A DNA stretch of 50,255 nt, taken from positions 4,472 to 54,726 of the forward strand of contig MGNQ01000019.1 of assembly GCA_001796865.1 (NCBI GenBank). The letters are read 5' to 3'. The DNA comes from Chloroflexi bacterium RBG_16_56_11. Lineage in GTDB: Bacteria > Chloroflexota > Dehalococcoidia > Dehalococcoidales > RBG-16-60-22. The translations under genes and the position numbers were made by a program. Shown here piece after piece: positions 25,962 through 34,831 of this stretch. Each line of letters begins with the position of its first letter. Within the stretch, counting starts at the first letter, position 1. The notes below the pieces were generated by a model. That model saw only the letters and a program-made list of their open reading frames with translations, was not told where the DNA came from and searched no databases.

Positions 25962-28900
25962 CTATTTCCCCCCGGCGGACACGGTAGCGTAGGTCATTTC
26001 GTAGAGCCGGGCGTAGAGACCGCCCCGGGCCAGAAGGTCTTCGTGTTTCCCCTCTTCAACGATGCGCCCTCCGTCCAGCACCAGGATACGGTCGGCGTTG
26101 CGGACGGTCGAAAGCCGGTGGGCAATGACGATGGCCGTCCTCCCCACCAGCAGGTGCTTCAGAGCCTCCTGCAATACCTGTTCGCTGTATGAGTCCATGT
26201 TAGCGGTGGCCTCGTCCAGCAGCAAGATGGCCGGCTCGGCCAGGAGCGCCCGGGCCAGGCTGACAAGCTGCCGCTGTCCCATGCTCAGGTTCTGTCCCCG
26301 CTCCTGGAGCACGGTATCGTATCCCTTCTCCATGTTAATGATGAAGCGGTGCGCGCCTACCGTCGTGGCCGCGGCGACAATCTCAGCCTCGGAGGCCGCT
26401 AATCTCCCGTAGCGGATGTTGTCCCGGATGGTCCCGGAGAACAGGAAGGGGTCCTGGAGGACCAGTCCCAGCTGGCCCCGGTAAGCTGCCGGGTTCATCT
26501 CGCATATGTCCCGGCCGTCTACCAGTATGCTCCCGCCGCTGACATCGTAAAAGCGGGCAATCAGGCTCATCACAGTGCTCTTGCCGGCGCCCGTCGGCCC
26601 GACCAGCGCCGCCGTCTCTCCCGGGGCGACCCGGAAACTGATATTATGCAGGACGTCCGGCCCTTTCTCGTAGTGGAAAGTCACGTCTTCGAACCTGATT
26701 TCGCCCTGCAAGCGCTGAGGTTTAACACCGGGGGAGGCGCCATCGGCCTCCGTCCTCACGTCCAGCAGTTCGAAGATGCGTGCCCCGGAGGCCATGGCCC
26801 GCTGGAGCTGGGTATACTCCATCGTCAGTGTCCGGATGGGGTCGAAGAACTGCTGGATATACAACATGAAGGCTACCAGGGTGCCGACCAGTATGGCCCC
26901 CTGGAGCACGCTTAGCCCGCCGAAGACGATTGTGAGTGCCGTGGCGATGGCTACCAGCGTCTCCACCAGCGGCATCATGGCGGCGGACTCCCGCGCCGCG
27001 ACCAGGTTCGCCTTGAGATTGTCGCGGTTGACGCGGTCGAAGTGCTCCGAGTTTAATTTTTCGCGGGACAAGCTCTGGATAATCCTGACACCGGTGATGT
27101 TTTCCTGGAGCGAGGCGTTGACCGCTGATAGGGACTGCCGGGCGCGTATGAAAGAAAGACGTGCCCGCTTTTGCCAGACGACGATAAACCAGAAGAGGAG
27201 CGGTATAACAGAGAGGCTGACCACGGCGAGTTTCAGGTCCATGCCCAGCATCACCACCACGATGGCCACCAGGCTGACAATCTCCCCGATGACCCAGAAG
27301 GCCCCGGAGTCGAGAAAGTCGCCCAGCTCACCCACGTCGTCCTGGGCGCGGGACATGACCCGGCCCGCCTCGTTGTGGTCGAAAAAGCTGATGTGGAAGC
27401 GCTGCAGCCGACTGAAGACCTGCCGGCGGAGTCGCAGCAGTATTCCCTGCCCGATGACCGCTTCCGCCCGTATCTGCCCCCAGTAGGAAATCCCGTGCAG
27501 CGCGGCGTTGCCCAGGAAAAGCAGGATGGCCAGGTTCAGCCCGGCGAGATTACCCGCCACGATGTAGTTGTTGATGGCCGTACCCACCAGGTAAGGGCTG
27601 GCCACGATGGTGGCGGTGTAGAACAGCGTCGCGATAATGGTCAGGGTCACGGCCACCTTGTGTGGCTTGAAATACCCGGCCATGCGCCCGACGACCCGCG
27701 TATCGTAAGGGCTCCCGAAAACGATGTCGTCCGAGTCGCTGAGGCTATCGCTGAAGCGGCCCCGCCGCGCCGGGGAGACGGCGCCTTCCGGGACGGGCGC
27801 CGCCGGCTCCGCGGCTTCCGCCGGTCCTTCGGCGGCGGGCTGCCAGCCTTCCTGGTACTGGAACTGCAAGTTATAAAGCCGGTAGTAAATGCCCTCGCGG
27901 TCGATGAGCTCCCGGTGGGTGCCCCGTTCCACGATGCGGCCGCCCTCCAGCACCAGGATAAGGTCGGCCATCTGGACGGAGCGTAGCCGCTGGGCGATGA
28001 TGAACGTCGTGCGTCCGGCCAGCAGGGCGTTCAGGGCCTGCCGGATAAGGAGCTCGGTCTCCATGTCCACGCTGGAGGTGGCGTCGTCCATGATGATGAT
28101 GCGGGGATCGAGCAGCAGGGTCCGGGCGATGGCCAGCCGCTGCTTCTGGCCACCGGAGAGGGTGATTCCCCGCTCCCCCACCCAGGTCTCGTACCCCTCG
28201 GGCAGGCCGGCGATAAAATCGTGCAGGTGGGCGATTTTCGAGGCGCGGATAATCTCCTCCATCGTGGCATCCGGCTTGCCGTAGGCGATGTTCTCCCGGA
28301 TGGTCGCCGAAAACAGGAAGGTGTCCTGGTGCACCATGCCGACATTGCGCCGCAAGGACTCCAGAGTCAGGTCGCGTATGTCCGTCCCGTCGATGGTGAT
28401 GCGACCGCCGCTGACATCGTAAAAACGCGGGATGAGGTTGGCGACGGTTGATTTCCCGCTGCCGCTGGCGCCAACGAGAGCGACTATCTGGCCCGGCTTG
28501 ACCTCGAAATCGACGTCACGGATGGCCGGCTGCTGCGAGTCATAGCTGAAAGTAACATTTTCGAAGCTGACCGCGCCCTTGATGCCCCTGAACTCGAGCG
28601 CCCCGGGCCTCTCCTCGACGGCCGATACCTCGTCCAGTACTTCGAACACCCTCTGCCCCGAGGACATGGCGCGGGAGTAGAGCTGCACCAGCCAGCCGAG
28701 CATCCTCACCGGCATGTTGAGCATTACCACGTAGAGCAGGAACTGGGCCATCTGTCCCTCGGTGATAACACCTCCAACCACCAGCCGGCCGCCGTACCAG
28801 AGTATGCCGCCCATCGCCAGCAGCAGCGCGAAGCTCATTACCGGGCTATTGGTGGCCAGCAGCTTGCTCACGTTTATCTCCAGCCCATAGTTCTCCCGGG

Positions 28901-29573
28901 CCTGGCGCAGGAACTTATCCGTCTCGTAGTCCTCGCGGGCGAAGGCCCGCACCACTTTGGCGCCAACGATGCTCTCCTGGAACATCGTGCCGAGCGACCC
29001 CAGCCCCTGCTGTATCTTCATGAACATGACGCGGAGCTTCTGCCCGATGACGATGGTGCGGAAGGAGATAAAGGGAACGACGCAGAGACTGATGAGCGCC
29101 AGCTTCCAGTTGAGGGCGAAAAGCACCGCCGCGATGGCTATCAGCAGTACCAGGAAATAGGCGCCGCGGAGGAGCGCGTAGCCGACGAACATGCGCACCC
29201 CTTCCACATCCGAGGTCGCCCGGGACATGAGCTGGCCCGTCTGGGAGCGGTCGTGGAAGGCGTAGCTGAGCTTCTGCAGGCTGTTGTACATCATGTTGCG
29301 GAGGTCGTAGGCCACCCGTTGTGAGAGCGCCTCCGCCAGGTACGACTGCCCGTAATTCAACACGCCCCGGAGTATGCCGGACGCGCCGATGGCGACGGCC
29401 AGGTAGACCAGCACGCCCGTCTGTCCCGAGCCCAGTGCCAGGTCGATGGCACGGCCGGTGAGCAGCGGAATCGCCATGGACAGGGCCGCCCCCACGATTA
29501 GGAAGACGTAGGCGAGGGCAGCCAGCCGCCGGTACTTCCAGAAAAGGGCCGCAATCCGCAGAAAAATACGCAT
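25962..29573 (-). CDS. Single-polypeptide ABC exporter (TMD-NBD-TMD-NBD, a fused heterodimer type)
   Basis: There are two six-helix TMDs. NBD1: GASGSGKST, LSGGQKQR, IIIMDDATSSVD. NBD2: GPTGAGKST, LSMGQRQL, ILLLDEATANMD. A Pro/Ala/Glu-rich linker joins the halves. Confidence 0.9.
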   Translation of the reverse strand: MRIFLRIAALFWKYRRLAALAYVFLIVGAALSMAIPLLTGRAIDLALGSGQTGVLVYLAVAIGASGILRGVLNYGQSYLAEALSQRVAYDLRNMMYNSLQKLSYAFHDRSQTGQLMSRATSDVEGVRMFVGYALLRGAYFLVLLIAIAAVLFALNWKLALISLCVVPFISFRTIVIGQKLRVMFMKIQQGLGSLGTMFQESIVGAKVVRAFAREDYETDKFLRQARENYGLEINVSKLLATNSPVMSFALLLAMGGILWYGGRLVVGGVITEGQMAQFLLYVVMLNMPVRMLGWLVQLYSRAMSSGQRVFEVLDEVSAVEERPGALEFRGIKGAVSFENVTFSYDSQQPAIRDVDFEVKPGQIVALVGASGSGKSTVANLIPRFYDVSGGRITIDGTDIRDLTLESLRRNVGMVHQDTFLFSATIRENIAYGKPDATMEEIIRASKIAHLHDFIAGLPEGYETWVGERGITLSGGQKQRLAIARTLLLDPRIIIMDDATSSVDMETELLIRQALNALLAGRTTFIIAQRLRSVQMADLILVLEGGRIVERGTHRELIDREGIYYRLYNLQFQYQEGWQPAAEGPAEAAEPAAPVPEGAVSPARRGRFSDSLSDSDDIVFGSPYDTRVVGRMAGYFKPHKVAVTLTIIATLFYTATIVASPYLVGTAINNYIVAGNLAGLNLAILLFLGNAALHGISYWGQIRAEAVIGQGILLRLRRQVFSRLQRFHISFFDHNEAGRVMSRAQDDVGELGDFLDSGAFWVIGEIVSLVAIVVVMLGMDLKLAVVSLSVIPLLFWFIVVWQKRARLSFIRARQSLSAVNASLQENITGVRIIQSLSREKLNSEHFDRVNRDNLKANLVAARESAAMMPLVETLVAIATALTIVFGGLSVLQGAILVGTLVAFMLYIQQFFDPIRTLTMEYTQLQRAMASGARIFELLDVRTEADGASPGVKPQRLQGEIRFEDVTFHYEKGPDVLHNISFRVAPGETAALVGPTGAGKSTVMSLIARFYDVSGGSILVDGRDICEMNPAAYRGQLGLVLQDPFLFSGTIRDNIRYGRLAASEAEIVAAATTVGAHRFIINMEKGYDTVLQERGQNLSMGQRQLVSLARALLAEPAILLLDEATANMDSYSEQVLQEALKHLLVGRTAIVIAHRLSTVRNADRILVLDGGRIVEEGKHEDLLARGGLYARLYEMTYATVSAGGK

Positions 29574-29624
29574 TTAATACTATGTTAGCATAACGGGGCT
29601 TTGAGGTTGTATAATATCCGCCGT

Positions 29625-30350
29625 ATGCACCGCTTTCACACCGATAAGGTTGACGGGGATACCGCTTCTATTTCGGATGCCGCTCAGCTCCACCATCTCC
29701 GGGATGTGTTGCGCCTGAAAGCCAGGGACGGGGTCGCCCTCTTCGACGGCCGGGGTAACGAGTACGAAGGCGTCATCAGCCGGATAGACAGGCAAAAAGC
29801 CCTCGTCAAAATCACCGCCGCGGTAACCCCCCGCCTGAAAAAGACAAAAATTACCGTGGCTTGCGCGGTACCCAAAGGGTCGACCCTGGACGACATTATC
29901 GACTACCTGACTCAACTGGGAGTCGACGCTATTGTCCCCATGATGACGGCGAGGGTTGTCGTCAGGCTGGACGGGGGCAGGAGAGAGTCGCGCCTCGAGC
30001 GCTGGCGGAAAATCGCTGCCAGCGCCGCCCGTCAGAGCCAGCGGAGCGAGTTCCCCGTCATCGAGGCGATAACGGATATAGAAGCGGTCATCTCCCGCGC
30101 CGCTGAATTCGACCTCAGGCTGATACCTACCCTGTCCGGCGAAAGAAGACCTCTGAAAGACATCCTCGCCGAATCCAGCCCTGAAAATATCCTGGTCATG
30201 ATTGGCCCGGAAGGCGATTTTACTCCGGAGGAAGTGGAACAGGCGCGGCGTGCGGGCTTTGTCCCGGCAACACTGGGGGACACCGTCCTGCGCGTGGCCA
30301 CGGCGGCGGTGGCCGTTGCCGGCTACATCAGGCTGGCGCTGGGGGAATAA
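29625..30350 (+). CDS. rsmE: 16S rRNA (uracil1498-N3)-methyltransferase
   Basis: MHRFH start. Contains the PUA-like N-terminus, IGPEGDFTPEE and LGDTVLRVATAA, typical of RsmE. Confidence 0.85.
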   Translation: MHRFHTDKVDGDTASISDAAQLHHLRDVLRLKARDGVALFDGRGNEYEGVISRIDRQKALVKITAAVTPRLKKTKITVACAVPKGSTLDDIIDYLTQLGVDAIVPMMTARVVVRLDGGRRESRLERWRKIAASAARQSQRSEFPVIEAITDIEAVISRAAEFDLRLIPTLSGERRPLKDILAESSPENILVMIGPEGDFTPEEVEQARRAGFVPATLGDTVLRVATAAVAVAGYIRLALGE

Positions 30351-30661
30351 GCGGTTATCAGTCCCCATAATAACTGGGGGTCAGACGATACAGACATGGG
30401 AGTGACCGGGAAGGAGAATCGGAAGACCGCTCTTCCAGAGACGGCGGAGAGGACGAGCCCGATAATAACTACTCCCGCAGCGATGATGGGAACGGGGAGG
30501 AGCACATCGATTAATAACGTTCCGCTATCTTTGGCCCTGCGTTGAGCGGTGGTGGGGTTCTACCCGGTTCGTGGGATACGCCCCAACATACATGGGGGGA
30601 CAAGCTAGTAATGGCATCATTGAGTGTCCCGCTTCTCTATCTGCATACGCCTTTTTACGCT

Positions 30662-31831
30662 TTACCGTCGAGTTTGCGGCAGATAACGCGGAGGTTTGTC
30701 CGCGGCGGGTTGGGTATAATCAAAGCCTTCAAGAGTCAGACGCTCCAGCGGTCCTTCGAGAATTTGCTCGAGGTCGAGTATCTTATCCTCGTCAGCGCTG
30801 GTTACGAAAGTCAAAGCGTCACCGCTTTTATTTACTCTTCCGGTACGCCCGATGCGGTGGATGTAATTGTCCGTGTTTTCGGGCATATCGTAGTTAATAA
30901 CGTGAGAAATCCTTAAAACGTCAATGCCGCGGGCAGCGATATCGGTAGCGACCAGGATTTTAAACGAACCGGTTCGGAATCCTTCAATTGCGGCCTGGCG
31001 CCGGTGCTGCGGCAGGTTACCCTGCAGTGATGTTACCCGGTAGCCTGCCTTTACCAGTTGTTGTGCCACGCGCTCGGCGCGGTGTTTGGTCCGTGTAAAA
31101 ACAAGCACCGATTCCGTCTTGGTTTTCTTTAAAATTTCTTTCAATAGCGCCGTCTTGAGGTGCTGCTTTACCGGGTAAAGGGCATGTGATACCGTTTTGG
31201 CCGGCAAAGTCCGGCCGATTTGTACGGTAATGGGGTCGTGCAGGATTTCCCGTACCAGTTGGCGGATGGCGGTGGGCATCGTAGCTGAAAAAAGTAATGT
31301 CTGGTGTTTCTGCAGGATGCACCCCAAAATGTTCCGGACGTCGGGTAGAAAACCCATGTCGAACATGCGGTCGGCCTCGTCGATGACGAGGATTTCCAGT
31401 TCCGACAAACTGAGAGTCCCTTTCCAGAGGTGGTCGAGTAAACGACCTGGACAGGCTACGGCGATTTCTACGCCCCTGCGTAGCTCCCGTATTTGTTGTT
31501 CCATGCCAACCCCGCCGTAGATAGCGACACTCCGCAGTCCGGTGTTGCTCCCCAGCTCGTTGAAAACCTCATTTGTCTGATCCGCCAGTTCCCGCGTTGG
31601 CGATATTATCAGGGCGCGCACACTTCCCCGCTGGTCTGATCTCAACAGCTGTAAAATTGGAAGCACGAACGCAGCTGTCTTACCGGTGCCGGTCTGGGCC
31701 AGGCCGATGACATCGCGTCCTTGTAAAATCAGCGGGATGGCCTGTAACTGGATTGGCGTTGGTGTGGCGTATCCGAGGGCCCGTATACCGGCCATGATGC
31801 TCGGATGAAAATTAAAGGTATCGAAATTCAT
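30662..31831 (-). CDS. DEAD-box ATP-dependent RNA helicase (RhlE/CshA-like)
   Basis: RBS AAGGAG. Contains the Q-motif TPTPIQ, AQTGTGKT, DEAD, SAT and HRIGRTGR. Confidence 0.92.
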   Translation of the reverse strand: MNFDTFNFHPSIMAGIRALGYATPTPIQLQAIPLILQGRDVIGLAQTGTGKTAAFVLPILQLLRSDQRGSVRALIISPTRELADQTNEVFNELGSNTGLRSVAIYGGVGMEQQIRELRRGVEIAVACPGRLLDHLWKGTLSLSELEILVIDEADRMFDMGFLPDVRNILGCILQKHQTLLFSATMPTAIRQLVREILHDPITVQIGRTLPAKTVSHALYPVKQHLKTALLKEILKKTKTESVLVFTRTKHRAERVAQQLVKAGYRVTSLQGNLPQHRRQAAIEGFRTGSFKILVATDIAARGIDVLRISHVINYDMPENTDNYIHRIGRTGRVNKSGDALTFVTSADEDKILDLEQILEGPLERLTLEGFDYTQPAADKPPRYLPQTRR

Positions 31832-31973
31832 ATAACTCCTTTGGGTGAATACCGGTCAAGTACCCGGGTTACTGGTATAAAGCCGCCGGGTTGAGATTGC
31901 TCATGTTCCTCAGCGAAGAGTGTAAACGCGGTACTGTGAAGGAAATCCTGGAGGGACTTGTCTTGAAAATATA

Positions 31974-32019
31974 TTGGATGACCTCTCTCTTTTTACCAGT
32001 TAGAGTTCGGGTCATCCAA
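31974..32019 (-). promoter_or_regulatory. Leader hairpin in the helicase 5' UTR (copy of the element at 32315-32361)
   Basis: 10-bp stem ttggatgacc / ggtcatccaa. The loop is homologous, as its reverse complement, to the loop at 32324-32352. Confidence 0.5.
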
Positions 32020-32088
32020 CACTCAGGAAAACTCTGTGAGAATAACTTTCGAGAAGCTTGTTATAACCTAAACTAGAACTTAATTGTT

Positions 32089-32117
32089 ATTATACCATAA
32101 ATAACATAATCCCGCAA
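32089..32117 (-). promoter_or_regulatory. Sigma70-like promoter for the DEAD-box helicase
   Basis: On the minus strand: TTGCGG, a 17-nt spacer, then TATAAT. Confidence 0.45.
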
Positions 32118-32220
32118 TTGGCATCGCATTCCGGTTACACGAGAGCTTCAGCGAAGGCAGTGGGCAGGCATTCCGGAACGGATTACATCCAGACGTTGAT
32201 AAGACCTCGTATTTGAAAAC

Positions 32221-32249
32221 TTGCAAAAAGAGTTATTTTGATATATAAT
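32221..32249 (+). promoter_or_regulatory. Sigma70-like promoter for the zinc-ribbon gene
   Basis: TTGCAA (32221-32226), a 17-nt spacer, then TATAAT (32244-32249). Confidence 0.5.
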
Positions 32250-32314
32250 ATGTTTATAGTTCCAGTTTAGGTTAATACCGACTTCTTGAAATCCCCATAA
32301 TTCCTATCAAGTAT

Positions 32315-32361
32315 TGGATGACCCGAGCTCTAACTAAATTGCGAAGAGAGGAGGTCATCCG
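32315..32361 (+). promoter_or_regulatory. Leader hairpin occluding part of the Shine-Dalgarno sequence of the zinc-ribbon gene
   Basis: Stem tggatgacc / ggtcatccg. The 3' arm overlaps GAGGAGG (32348-32354) and ends 1 nt before the ATG at 32362. Confidence 0.5.
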
Positions 32362-32688
32362 ATGAGTTTCGAGGACAAGACCTTGGAGTGTTCCGATTGC
32401 AGTACTGCGTTCACCTTTAGCGCTGGCGAGCAGGAGGAGTTTCGGTCCAGGGGTTATTCCAACCAGCCCAAACGCTGCCCCGAATGCCGTCAGGCAAGGA
32501 AATCAGAACGCTACGGAAATACTGCTGGTAGCTATGGAAATAGCGGCTCTACCTATTCACCCGGGCGTCAGATGTTCCCGGCCGTATGCTCCGATTGCGG
32601 CAAGTCAACTTCTGTGCCTTTTGAACCCCGCCAGGGCCGGCCGGTCTATTGCAGCGATTGCTATCGAAAAGTAAAAACGAGCAGGTAA
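32362..32688 (+). CDS. Zinc-ribbon protein with two CxxC...CxxC modules (zf-trcl-like)
   Basis: Contains LECSDCSTAFTFSAGEQEEF...RCPECRQARK and CSDCGKSTSVPFEP..GRPVYCSDCY. Confidence 0.75.
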   Translation: MSFEDKTLECSDCSTAFTFSAGEQEEFRSRGYSNQPKRCPECRQARKSERYGNTAGSYGNSGSTYSPGRQMFPAVCSDCGKSTSVPFEPRQGRPVYCSDCYRKVKTSR

Positions 32689-32705
32689 TTTGCTTCGTTA
32701 GGGAA

Positions 32706-32740
32706 ATACACGGGGCCGGAAACCTCCGGCCCCCGTGTAT
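32706..32740 (+). terminator. GC-rich hairpin after the zinc-ribbon gene
   Basis: atacacggggccgga-aacc-tccggcccccgtgtat gives a ~14-bp stem with a 1-nt bulge. No clear U-tract follows. Confidence 0.45.
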
Positions 32741-32779
32741 ACCCAGCACGGCCGGGATTAACTGTAAGGGGGGCTATTC

Positions 32780-33160
32780 ATGATTGACAAGAAGCCGAGG
32801 AGAACTATCATTTTCGGTGGGCAGGATGAAGACTTCATTAAGAAACTCGCCGGGGACATCGGCTGCCATTATTCGAAGGCGAATGAGCGTACTTACAATT
32901 TGAACAGATTTAACTCCGATGTGCACGGTGAAATGGGCATTTTCGCCTGGGTTCATAAAGAAGATAGCGATTATTTCTGGGTAGCAACGCGAAAGAGCTG
33001 GGTGGAACAGGCAAGGTCAAAAGAACTGGCTGGAAGAAAGTACGGACTGAGCTGTTTCCCCAGAGACACCCAGCGTGCCGAAGATAGCGTCTGTTTTGAC
33101 ACAAAAAACGATTACCAGAATGCCGTGAGAGCATTAAGCTTGATTAATAAAGCGGCTTAG
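32780..33160 (+). CDS. Hypothetical protein
   Basis: A 126-aa ORF with RBS AAGGGGGG. No family was recognised. Confidence 0.5.
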   Translation: MIDKKPRRTIIFGGQDEDFIKKLAGDIGCHYSKANERTYNLNRFNSDVHGEMGIFAWVHKEDSDYFWVATRKSWVEQARSKELAGRKYGLSCFPRDTQRAEDSVCFDTKNDYQNAVRALSLINKAA

Positions 33161-33295
33161 ACCATGGCTTATCAGAGAGTACCCGCCAAGGTTACGATGG
33201 TTTTATGGCTGGCATTTTCAGGGTTGTGCAATCGGGTACACGACCATGCGACATCGCCGGGATAAAACCGCCTTTTTCTTAAACGGAGAATCAAT

Positions 33296-34831
33296 ATGAA
33301 GATACTTCTTGTTTATCCTCGGTATCCCGACACCTTCTGGAGCTTCAGACACGCACTGAAGTTCTTATCCAAGAAGGCTTCCTTTCCACCTCTGGGACTC
33401 CTGACGGTCGCCGCCATGCTTCCCGCCGGGTGGGAGAAAAAGCTGGTAGATTTAAATGTATGCGCCTTGAACGATGAAGATATAGAATGGGCTGATTACG
33501 TCTTCCTCAGCTCCATGGTAGTGCAGAAGACTTCGGCGGGCGAAGTAATAGAAAGGTGTCGCAACCTAAATACCAGCGTGGTGGCCGGTGGCCCGCTTTT
33601 CACGACCGGATACGAAGAGTTTGAGGGAGTGGACCACTTTGTGCTGGGTGAAGCCGAAGTCACGCTTCCGCCCTTTTTAGCTGACCTAGCCAAAGGTCAG
33701 CCCCGGCACATCTACTCATCAGACGAACGGCCGGACATAAGCCAAACGCCCGCCCCGCTGTGGTCGCTTATCAACATGAAGCACTACTCGGCGATGAGTC
33801 TCCAGTACTCACGCGGTTGCCCTTTCGACTGCGAATTTTGCGATATTACTCTGTTAAATGGCCATGAACCCCGGACCAAAAGCCGGCAACAGATGGTCGA
33901 TGAGCTGGAGGCACTCTACCGCCGGGGCTGGCGGGGCAGTCTATTTATCGTCGACGACAATTTCATAGGTAATAGGAGAAAATTAAAAACCGAGACCTTA
34001 CCGGCCATGATTCAATGGTCGAGGCAGAAAAAATACCCTTTCGTGTTCTTCACCGAAGCATCTATTAATCTCGCTGATGATGAGGAGTTGATGGACCTCA
34101 TGGCGGAGGCCGGTTTTAACCGGGTCTTTGTCGGCATTGAGACTCCGAATGAAGAAAGTCTGGTGGAATGTAACAAGCAACAAAATAGAAACCGGGACCT
34201 GGCGGCCGCGGTGAAGCTAATTCAGAACCATGGTTTTGAAGTTCAGGGAGGCTTCATCCTCGGATTTGATAGCGACCCGGCCTCCATCTTTAATAAACAA
34301 ATACACTTTATTCAAAAGACTGGAATCGTTACGGCCATGGTCGGTTTGCTCAATGCCCCCAACGGAACAAAACTCTATAAGCGGCTCAAAAAGGAAAACC
34401 GCTTGATCAGAGACATGTCCGGGGATAACACGGATTTTTCCATTAATTTCGTTCCCAAAATGCAATATGAAACTCTCGTGGCCGGATATAAGCACGTCCT
34501 CGACACAATCTATTCGCCCCGCCATTATTATGAGCGGGTCGTTACCTTCCTGAAGGAATACCGGCCGCGCAAGACGGCCGGGATATCGCAGCTACGGTTC
34601 AATCATATCACCGGTTTTATTAAATCAATGTGGTTCTTAGGTATCTGGAATAAAGGGAGGCGGTATTACTGGAGACTCCTTATTTCGACTCTCCTGAAAC
34701 GTCCACGTCATTTCCCGTTATCAATTAGTCTCTCAGTCTCAGGGTTCCACTTCCGACGGGTGGCCGAGGGTTATAACAGGGCTGTTCTCGCCCTCCGCCA
34801 TCAAGGCGCCAATAAAGCCCTGCCCCTTTAG
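33296..34831 (+). CDS. B12-binding domain radical SAM protein (class B, with a DUF4070-like C-terminal region)
   Basis: N-terminus KILLVYPRYPDTFWSF...PPLGLLTVAAML (B12-binding-like). Radical SAM motif CPFDCEFC. Confidence 0.85.
   Translation: MKILLVYPRYPDTFWSFRHALKFLSKKASFPPLGLLTVAAMLPAGWEKKLVDLNVCALNDEDIEWADYVFLSSMVVQKTSAGEVIERCRNLNTSVVAGGPLFTTGYEEFEGVDHFVLGEAEVTLPPFLADLAKGQPRHIYSSDERPDISQTPAPLWSLINMKHYSAMSLQYSRGCPFDCEFCDITLLNGHEPRTKSRQQMVDELEALYRRGWRGSLFIVDDNFIGNRRKLKTETLPAMIQWSRQKKYPFVFFTEASINLADDEELMDLMAEAGFNRVFVGIETPNEESLVECNKQQNRNRDLAAAVKLIQNHGFEVQGGFILGFDSDPASIFNKQIHFIQKTGIVTAMVGLLNAPNGTKLYKRLKKENRLIRDMSGDNTDFSINFVPKMQYETLVAGYKHVLDTIYSPRHYYERVVTFLKEYRPRKTAGISQLRFNHITGFIKSMWFLGIWNKGRRYYWRLLISTLLKRPRHFPLSISLSVSGFHFRRVAEGYNRAVLALRHQGANKALPL

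Follow-up and report, generated by a model that had tools for sequence, protein, structure and literature searches.

Two inherited head-to-head copies of a promoter and a probable two-state RNA leader between a DEAD-box helicase gene and a zinc-ribbon gene in a Dehalococcoidia genome

We consider here a 50,255-nt stretch of DNA (the window; all positions are those of the whole window) from contig MGNQ01000019.1 of Chloroflexi bacterium RBG_16_56_11, in which a 530-nt spacer separates two divergent genes, a DEAD-box helicase gene on the minus strand and a gene for a zinc-ribbon protein of 108 amino acids (aa) on the plus strand. In the spacer lie two inherited head-to-head copies of a promoter plus a messenger RNA (mRNA) leader, and the copy on the helicase side stands on the relic of a zinc-ribbon gene; on balance we think it probable that the leader is two-state and acts as a kinetic switch that is on in the cold. 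The unit, i.e. the promoter and the mRNA leader of about 110 nt, is present in four copies in this genome, three of them upstream of zf_Tbcl (zinc-ribbon) paralogs and one upstream of the helicase gene. In the spacer its parts are located as follows.

32117..32089, minus strand: helicase-side promoter TTGCGG-17-TATAAT (-35 at 32117..32112, -10 at 32094..32089), with a TGn extended -10, read from the sequence
31972..32085, minus strand: helicase-side leader copy, from the match to the covariance model R2 (see below) and the duplex prediction
31828..31974, minus strand: relic of a zinc-ribbon N-terminal domain, from coding-sequence (CDS) alignment, blastx and an open frame
32221-32249, plus strand: zinc-ribbon-side promoter TTGCAA-17-TATAAT (-35 at 32221-32226, -10 at 32244-32249), 10/12 matches in a promoter scan
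32253..32364, plus strand: zinc-ribbon-side leader copy, from the R2 match, the folds and the pair counts

Both promoters lie where an earlier sequence-only reading of this spacer had placed them, each feature having been checked against the sequence. A simple promoter scanner lists only the one on the plus strand, because TTGCGG of the other fails the scanner's TTGACA rule. The -35 form TTGCAGG or TTGCGGG plus the extended -10 recur in the orthologous leaders of the helicase side, and TTGCAA-N17-TATAAT, often with TGn, accompanies nearly all of the 84 members of the leader family. The conserved block agttcYagtttaggtta reported downstream of the promoters is present at 32258-32274 (plus) and 32080..32064 (minus), with the ends given before being off by one base, and the two reported hairpins are also found, with 31974-31983 pairing with 32010-32019 (10 bp, 100%) and 32313-32323 pairing with 32353-32363. 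As had been described, the hairpin on the zinc-ribbon side overlaps the Shine-Dalgarno (SD) sequence, since GGTCATCC (32353-32360) overlaps GAGGAGG. Its stem extends to the A of the ATG at 32362. The large-scale dyad symmetry of the spacer is evident in the inverted repeats I1 (48 nt, 73%) and I2 (26 nt, 92%), but its extent has to be redrawn, because it runs past the hairpin, with the remaining ~140 nt of the helicase leader matching the start of the zinc-ribbon CDS. The cttctYgaaa block, which had been listed among the shared elements, forms a small hairpin within one subfamily but is not a family-wide motif and is rejected as such; it is the sole structure in the ~55 nt between the 5' block and the main hairpin, where length and sequence vary and only 62% of the cells pair across the family. 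The ~100 nt between the two promoters are non-repeated and GC-richer.

The distribution of the leader was determined with a covariance model that was built from the four copies of this genome and rebuilt on 28 relatives (R1, R2), with two search sets, the 41 nearest genomes and 151 genomes spread over the class Dehalococcoidia. In the first set R2 gives 85 matches in 38 genomes, and in the second set it gives matches in 48 genomes, which represent 41 of the 111 genera. Among these are the complete same-order genomes G033, G117, G136, G154 and G171, with E values from 1e-6 to 1e-8. The two window copies match at 93.4 bits (E 2e-14, helicase side) and 101.4 bits (E 6e-16, zinc-ribbon side) and are 75% identical to each other over ~165 nt, so that the paralogous promoter-plus-leader copies on both sides, as proposed from the sequence, are borne out. 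The same reading had suggested a covariance-model search upstream of orthologs in related genomes and had regarded a lack of conservation there as evidence against the element; the leader is conserved there. In about 75 of the 84 copies of the first set the leader ends exactly on the start codon of a zinc-ribbon gene, while in 7 of 62 further copies, and also in 4 close helicase orthologs, it ends directly on the start of a DEAD-box helicase gene. Behind the leader three operon orders are seen: Zn-RRM-(RRM)-DEAD-box helicase, Zn-p126 (the plus-strand operon of the window) and Zn alone, where Zn is the zinc-ribbon gene. Because the leader sits directly on helicase starts in other Dehalococcoidia, the helicase and the zinc-ribbon genes share the RNA element. 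The proposal of a switch common to the two genes thus stands insofar as the same RNA element heads both genes in these bacteria, but the hairpin on which it was based is just one of two folds.

One relative, G005, retains the intact divergent pair in the order hel<-rrm<-rrm<-Zn<-leader / leader->Zn->p126, and from this mirror arrangement it follows that the pair in the window is inherited and arose as an inverted duplication of the promoter together with its leader and zinc-ribbon gene. It is also observed that the two divergent zinc-ribbon genes of G005 (L045, C2:1500-5500) are near-identical (tree branches 0.02, sister at 99/96), which suggests recent gene conversion between the inverted copies.

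The closest relatives of the helicase carry the labels Dehalococcoidia, Dehalococcoidales or Chloroflexota, and in the helicase homologs from Nitrospirota, Syntrophales and similar groups there is no leader within 600 nt upstream. No Rfam 15 family matches the leader, including the cspA thermoregulator, Chlorobi-RRM (RF01697) and Chloroflexi-1 (RF01698): the scan of 31000-33500 at E up to 10 gives a single chance match to a lncRNA family, inside the helicase gene, and the scan of five related loci at E up to 1 gives nothing at the leader positions. Literature searches on the zinc-ribbon family (PF13451) and on RRM/DEAD-box/zinc-ribbon cold shock returned no description of the leader or of the operon.

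Several further loci carry variants of these operons. In the Zn2 operon of this genome (L002 334-1125 (-), G000:C48) two RRM genes stand behind a zinc-ribbon paralog, and one of the RRM proteins matches NCBIfam NF058537 'RNA-binding regulator' at 101.8 bits (cut-off 100); as no helicase gene follows them, the helicase and RRM genes are split here between two leader-driven loci. Short zinc-ribbon open reading frames (ORFs) of 46-61 aa with the N-terminal zf_Tbcl domain only are found behind the leaders L102, L041, L019, L084, L093, L111 and L143. In addition, an unrelated 236-aa ORF (MNYDDFLELVKNRRSFRRF...) has a weak leader match ending on its ATG (L044 871-978 (+), G002:C23; E 3.5e-5), and this leader may have been captured by another gene.

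We turn to the structure of the leader, which is predicted from sequence comparison and folding calculations to be a two-state RNA with mutually exclusive open and locked folds. In the locked fold, a hairpin of 10 bp, UUGGAUGACC/GGUCAUCCRA, buries the spacer between the SD and the start and also takes in the last two G of the SD and the initial base of the start codon. The predicted open fold instead pairs the hairpin's 5' arm, and the 5' half of its loop, with the first ~25 nt of the leader; this gives three short helices (a, b and c; ~16 bp), and the SD and the start codon stay free. On the zinc-ribbon side the locked hairpin pairs 32314-32323 with 32353-32362, the A of the ATG included, the SD AGAGAGGAGG is at 32345-32354, and the open pairs are 32257-32261, 32264-32268 and 32270-32274 with 32332-32336, 32325-32329 and 32319-32323, respectively. 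On the helicase side the 5' arm of the locked hairpin is 32019..32010 and its 3' arm 31983..31974, and the open pairs are 32080..32077, 32074..32070 and 32068..32063 with 32001..31998, 32008..32004 and 32015..32010, respectively.

The hairpin as a conserved structure is supported by covariation across the family. Among the 85 aligned rows, 95-97% of the hairpin's cells pair, and its outer pairs change in a compensatory way, with UA 51, AU 10 and CG 3 at one and UA 57 and CG 14 at the other. The evidence for the open fold comes from an unbiased scan of column pairs, whose top pair is column 6 near the 5' end against loop column 141 (GC 38, AU 32, GU 11, other 4), i.e. the R of the 5' RGUU against the Y of the loop AACY; in the zinc-ribbon-side copy this covarying pair is A-U, at 32258 and 32335. 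From this pair the complementarity continues in register through AGUUU:GAGCU and then GGUUAU:AUGACC, by which point it has entered the 5' arm of the hairpin itself. What had been taken for a separate motif, the conserved 5' block, is thus the strand that competes with the hairpin, as the pair counts and duplex energies also indicate. Over all 17 long-range pairs 86.8% of the cells are pairable, versus 28-48% with the partner slid, and for helix c 94% are pairable versus 29-53% slid. On the zinc-ribbon protein tree the starred branches alone require at least two GC-state changes and at least five AU-state changes. Because many of the pairs are G-U, the long-range pairing is specific to the sense strand. 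Over the 84 copies used for the duplex and folding counts, the duplex of the 5' 26 nt with arm plus loop has a median energy of -16.4 kcal/mol versus -8.2 kcal/mol for shuffles, with z < -2 in 73 of them, while a control with the middle segment has z 0.08. Since helices b and c use the 5' arm of the hairpin, the two folds cannot coexist. A pure pseudoknot, with the 5' end on the loop and the hairpin left standing, is retained as a sub-possibility only, as the complementarity continues into the hairpin's 5' arm. A metabolite riboswitch is rejected, with no conserved aptamer core between the switching strands and no match to an Rfam aptamer.

The arm that is contested between the two folds also resembles ribosomal RNA. 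The 3' end of the 16S ribosomal RNA (rRNA), located by a search with RF00177 in genomes of the same order, reads GGAUCACCUCCUUUCU; the leader's AGAGAGGAGGUCAUCC is complementary to it at 14 of 16 bases, and the hairpin's 5' arm GGAUGACC mimics it.

Based on the model calculations, 78-79 of the 84 copies adopt the open fold when the transcript stops short of the 3' arm, and most copies favour the locked fold once the transcript is complete. The two states are within 1-8 kcal/mol of each other, and the barriers from open to locked are estimated at 15-21 kcal/mol at 37 °C and at 23-30 kcal/mol at 10 °C. At equilibrium 9 copies are predicted to be open at 50 °C and 22 at 5 °C, and the Zn2 copy of this genome is predicted to change its preferred fold between 37 °C and 10 °C. 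The proposed mechanism is then as follows. On the nascent transcript the open fold would form first, while the locked fold would be of equal or greater stability at equilibrium; with this, the output should depend on how fast the open fold relaxes to the locked one. Cold would slow this relaxation and RNA chaperones would perhaps speed it, giving a cold-on switch of the kind of the csp thermoswitches, which were described for the 5' untranslated regions (5'UTRs) of Staphylococcus aureus cspB and cspC by Catalan-Moreno et al. 2021 (PMC8034633). Control by temperature is inferred, together with the direction and the trigger of the switching. The RRM proteins plus the DEAD-box helicase are a gene set that fits a cold-on switch. 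On the zinc-ribbon side the leader would gate the translation of the zinc-ribbon gene and, with it, the two-gene operon Zn1-p126 (Zn1 being the 108-aa protein); on the helicase side the switch may be passed on through translation of the relic, through transcript stability, or through both.

The helicase side requires separate consideration. The sequence-only reading had noted that the helicase leader continues for ~140 nt beyond the hairpin and had taken this for the long leader of a cold-shock helicase; the stretch exists, but it is the decayed start of a zinc-ribbon gene. Three zinc-ribbon CDSs align with it over their first ~135 nt, and blastx matches it to zinc-ribbon residues 3-32 (E 1.5e-5). 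The start ATG has become ATA (31974..31972, confirmed by an independent contig with 0 differences), the first CxxC is lost, and a 2-nt insertion has shifted the frame. The 11-codon upstream ORF at 31904..31869 (MSNLNPAALYQ) that had been pointed out here does exist, but as a by-product of this decay: a CAG -> CAT change in the decayed CDS made its ATG, it is read in another frame than the relic, and it is rejected as a regulatory feature. In comparison with the intact Zn-RRM-RRM-helicase operons of other genera, the leader on the helicase side of the window is 76-82% identical to its orthologs, versus 73-87% among the intact orthologs, whereas at the zinc-ribbon CDS start the relic is 56-61% identical versus 70-83% among the intact ones. 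This indicates that the leader has remained under constraint while the gene behind it has not. The helicase-side leader is the ortholog of the leader of the Zn-RRM-RRM-helicase operon, whose RRM genes are gone here.

From the old start the relic frame is free of stops for 48 codons up to a TGA at 31830..31828, which overlaps the ATG of the helicase gene (31831..31829) as ATGA. Relics behind retained leaders also occur before the helicase gene in G034 and G095 and before p126 in G003 and G012, and three of these have frames as follows.

G034: start ATG, 50 open codons, ending TGATG on the helicase start
G003: start ATG, 39 open codons, ending ATGA on the p126 start
G095: start ATA, 48 open codons, with the stop 18 nt inside the helicase gene

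The relic peptides are not conserved among the loci, and the chance of 47 open codons in shuffled sequence of the same composition is 0.10. The conserved leader and the relic frame that stays open to the ATGA together suggest that the helicase gene is still tied to the leader, via translation of the relic, transcript stability, or both; that the relic is kept as a coupling frame is suggestive only. In G168 a 46-aa gene with only the N-terminal zf_Tbcl domain is found 127 nt upstream of the helicase gene, and the 48-codon relic may derive from a short N-terminal-only form of this type.

A number of points weigh against this picture of a kinetic cold-on switch passed on through a relic. In the equilibrium partition functions both window copies are locked at P ~0.99 from 5 to 50 °C, with no flip, so that an equilibrium thermometer is rejected for them and any cold response there would have to be kinetic or protein-assisted. 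A single R-Y position supplies most of the covariation for the open state, with helices b and c uninformative in this respect because they are nearly invariant, and the helix between the 5' end and the loop taken alone could coexist with the hairpin as a pseudoknot. The fold z-scores of the single sequences, -1.6 and -0.8, are unremarkable, and the transcription start is a prediction from the -10 box. On the helicase side, the relics of G012 and G028 are without stop-start overlap, and in the window the relic has a weakened SD (GAGAGG) and the poor initiator AUA, so that coupling may be weak or lost in this genome.

It is noted that the data can also be looked at from other viewpoints. The most serious is that the leader is autoregulated by protein, the zinc-ribbon, RRM or helicase proteins binding or remodelling it into the locked state, so that it would sense chaperone capacity rather than temperature. 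This we regard as possible, if short of likely, and it is compatible with a kinetic cold-on switch, as both could hold. The leader is nearly always on a zinc-ribbon gene, with operons of RNA-binding and RNA-remodelling proteins only; the loop (CUCUAACY, AAGAGAG) and the stem sequences are conserved far beyond the needs of pairing; and, since the window copies are already locked at equilibrium, a factor that speeds relaxation would repress. In S. aureus, CspA favours the locked fold of the cspB/cspC thermoswitches (PMC8034633). The conservation is, however, also explained by three overlapping constraints, namely the pairing of the 5' block, the pairing of the 3' arm and the complementarity to the 16S tail, and the experiments found on the zinc-ribbon family show zinc binding only, in Methanosarcina (PMC12704099), so that RNA binding here is putative. 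A more specific proposal, which we put forward tentatively and consider rather unlikely as a whole, is that the leader would be a sensor of RNA-folding capacity: each new transcript would begin in the open, translatable fold, its locking would be sped by the chaperones encoded behind it, and relics, kept free of stops as coupling frames, would pass the switch to the gene that follows (the helicase here and in G034 and G095, p126 in G003), possibly by translation started at AUA. If it is true, a homeostatic loop would read cold and any other RNA-folding stress.

By contrast, the leader may be a constitutive structure that does not switch, with the pairing of the 5' end protecting it from 5'-end-dependent decay and the long SD capturing ribosomes for high and stable expression of a group of abundant small proteins. 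The SD is indeed very long, lying mostly in the loop and complementary to the 16S tail at 14-15 of 16 bases, the 5'-terminal bases pair with the loop in a helix that could stand beside the hairpin, and the leader is kept before the helicase gene, where it no longer gates a start codon. If this proposal were true, it would be difficult to understand why helices b and c use the 5' arm of the hairpin, making the folds exclusive, with helix c so much more pairable in register than slid, and why nearly every copy has the first base of its start codon inside the stem, which is costly for high expression; we thus judge it unlikely. Still less should be given to the idea that the conservation and symmetry reflect DNA operators for a transcription factor acting on both divergent promoters. 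It would account for the conserved 5' block starting at the predicted transcription start, for the dyad symmetry and for the ~100 nt of non-repeated, GC-richer DNA between the promoters, but most family members are single, without a divergent partner, the element always ends exactly on a start codon, sites 50-130 nt apart show compensatory covariation, and the many G-U pairs would be A-C mismatches on the other strand. We find this very improbable, and hardly worth entertaining is an RNA thermometer in which the SD hairpin melts at high temperature and turns the genes on with heat. The hairpin does overlap the SD in part and takes in the first base of the start codon, but with 10 perfect bp plus an inner helix it is predicted to persist at P ≥0.9 from 5 to 50 °C. 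Known melting thermometers rely on weak, mismatched stems. Melting also leaves the conserved competitor strand unexplained, and the RRM and DEAD-box gene content points to cold or RNA-folding stress; with its perfect 10-bp stem and its competitor strand, the leader is set apart from ROSE/fourU-type thermometers, and membership of that class is rejected.

The genes that flank the spacer are as follows.

30662..31831, minus strand: DEAD-box RNA helicase gene, 389 aa (Pfam DEAD PF00270, 1.9e-53; Helicase_C PF00271, 2.8e-35)
32362..32688, plus strand: zinc-ribbon protein Zn1, 108 aa, with two treble-clef CxxC domains (Pfam and NCBIfam)
32780..33160, plus strand: p126, a 126-aa protein, second gene of the Zn1 operon, recurrent behind leader-Zn units
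33296-34831, plus strand: B12-binding radical SAM gene with DUF4070, downstream of p126

The best NCBIfam models for the helicase are CshA, RhlE and DbpA, and because it scores under the equivalog cut-offs of CshA, RhlE, DbpA and CsdA it is not assigned to a named ortholog group. Zn1 matches zf_Tbcl PF13451 (1.1e-16, 61 bits), zf_Tbcl_2 PF23477 (2e-19, 69 bits) and NCBIfam TIGR04272 CxxC-x17-CxxC (70 bits), all three domain models being above their cut-offs. A sequence search of the PDB and an Atlas feature search gave nothing usable on structural relatives of the zinc ribbon; small Methanosarcina proteins homologous to its C-terminal domain bind zinc (PMC12704099). Pfam, NCBIfam and the PDB give no match for the p126 protein, and the Atlas none that is named; its gene stands behind leader-Zn in G013, G007 and G005 and behind the leader plus a zinc-ribbon relic in G003 and G012. 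The neighbourhood of the radical SAM gene is conserved, since its homologs (L037, L041; MKILLVYPRYPDTFW... and VKILLVYPQYPDTFW...) follow p126 or a truncated-Zn unit in G012 and G040. On the other side, a 262-aa ORF at 29580-30368 (minus), between the helicase gene and a fused ABC transporter gene (25962-29573), has no Pfam match.

The Dehalococcoidia are central to organohalide bioremediation and are abundant in sediments and aquifers, and to our knowledge almost nothing is known of their post-transcriptional regulation. With the present model, the leader is a widespread and so far uncatalogued cis-acting RNA of two-state design on the main RNA-chaperone gene set of this class, and through it the CxxC-x17-CxxC zinc-ribbon proteins are connected with RNA metabolism, perhaps also with adaptation to cold. 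What this window adds is that the helicase leader derives in part from a relic, that leader and relic differ in conservation, that relic frames are free of stops and end at the start of the following gene, and that leader and helicase gene are directly fused in other members of the class. For evolution, it implies a regulatory leader that outlives its own gene and is handed to the next gene via a stop-free remnant. We also provide a predicted result: mutation of the 5' block should lock the leader off, while mutation of the 3' arm should lock it on.

Finally, we compare the leader with known systems. The name of the Chlorobi-RRM motif is tied to genes of RRM proteins. This motif (RF01697) is a candidate cis-regulatory structured leader of one phylum (Weinberg et al. 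2010, PMC2864571). The present leader belongs to another phylum, has another structure and gives no cmscan match to it, and it sits on a zinc-ribbon gene that heads the RRM operon. In cyanobacteria, the products of rbp (RRM) and crhR (DEAD-box) make up a set of RNA chaperones that responds to cold, with conserved 5'UTR elements and an autoregulated helicase; there, unlike here, the genes are scattered and have no known zinc-ribbon lead gene, and our element is unrelated in sequence. For Escherichia coli cspA mRNA, in 2010 work ascribed to Giuliodori et al., an early co-transcriptional fold is reportedly translatable and kept in the cold, giving way in the warm to a less translatable one, with stabilisation of the transcript said to contribute too. 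Our leader is not homologous to it, as no Rfam match is obtained, and is much shorter, with a defined SD/anti-SD hairpin.

By mechanism, the csp thermoswitch class is the closest known system. No sequence or model similarity to S. aureus cspB/cspC is found, the phylum is different, and the dependence on temperature, described there, is putative here. The genes here encode zinc-ribbon, RRM and DEAD-box proteins instead of csp proteins: the single cold-shock-domain (CSD) gene of this genome (C8:26623-26808) has no R2 leader match, and what stands downstream of the leader is zf_Tbcl, RRM, DEAD-box and p126 genes. Here it is the extreme 5' end that competes, by way of three short helices, and the anti-SD arm is a copy of the 3' end of 16S rRNA. 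In both systems, however, paralogous 5'UTRs have two exclusive folds, an open one that admits ribosomes and a locked one that hides the ribosome binding site, a likeness which on our side is seen in silico and by comparison. In S. aureus the RNA chaperone can favour the locked fold, and in both systems the genes under control are those of RNA chaperones. In the open fold of both, the anti-ribosome-binding-site strand is captured by an upstream segment.

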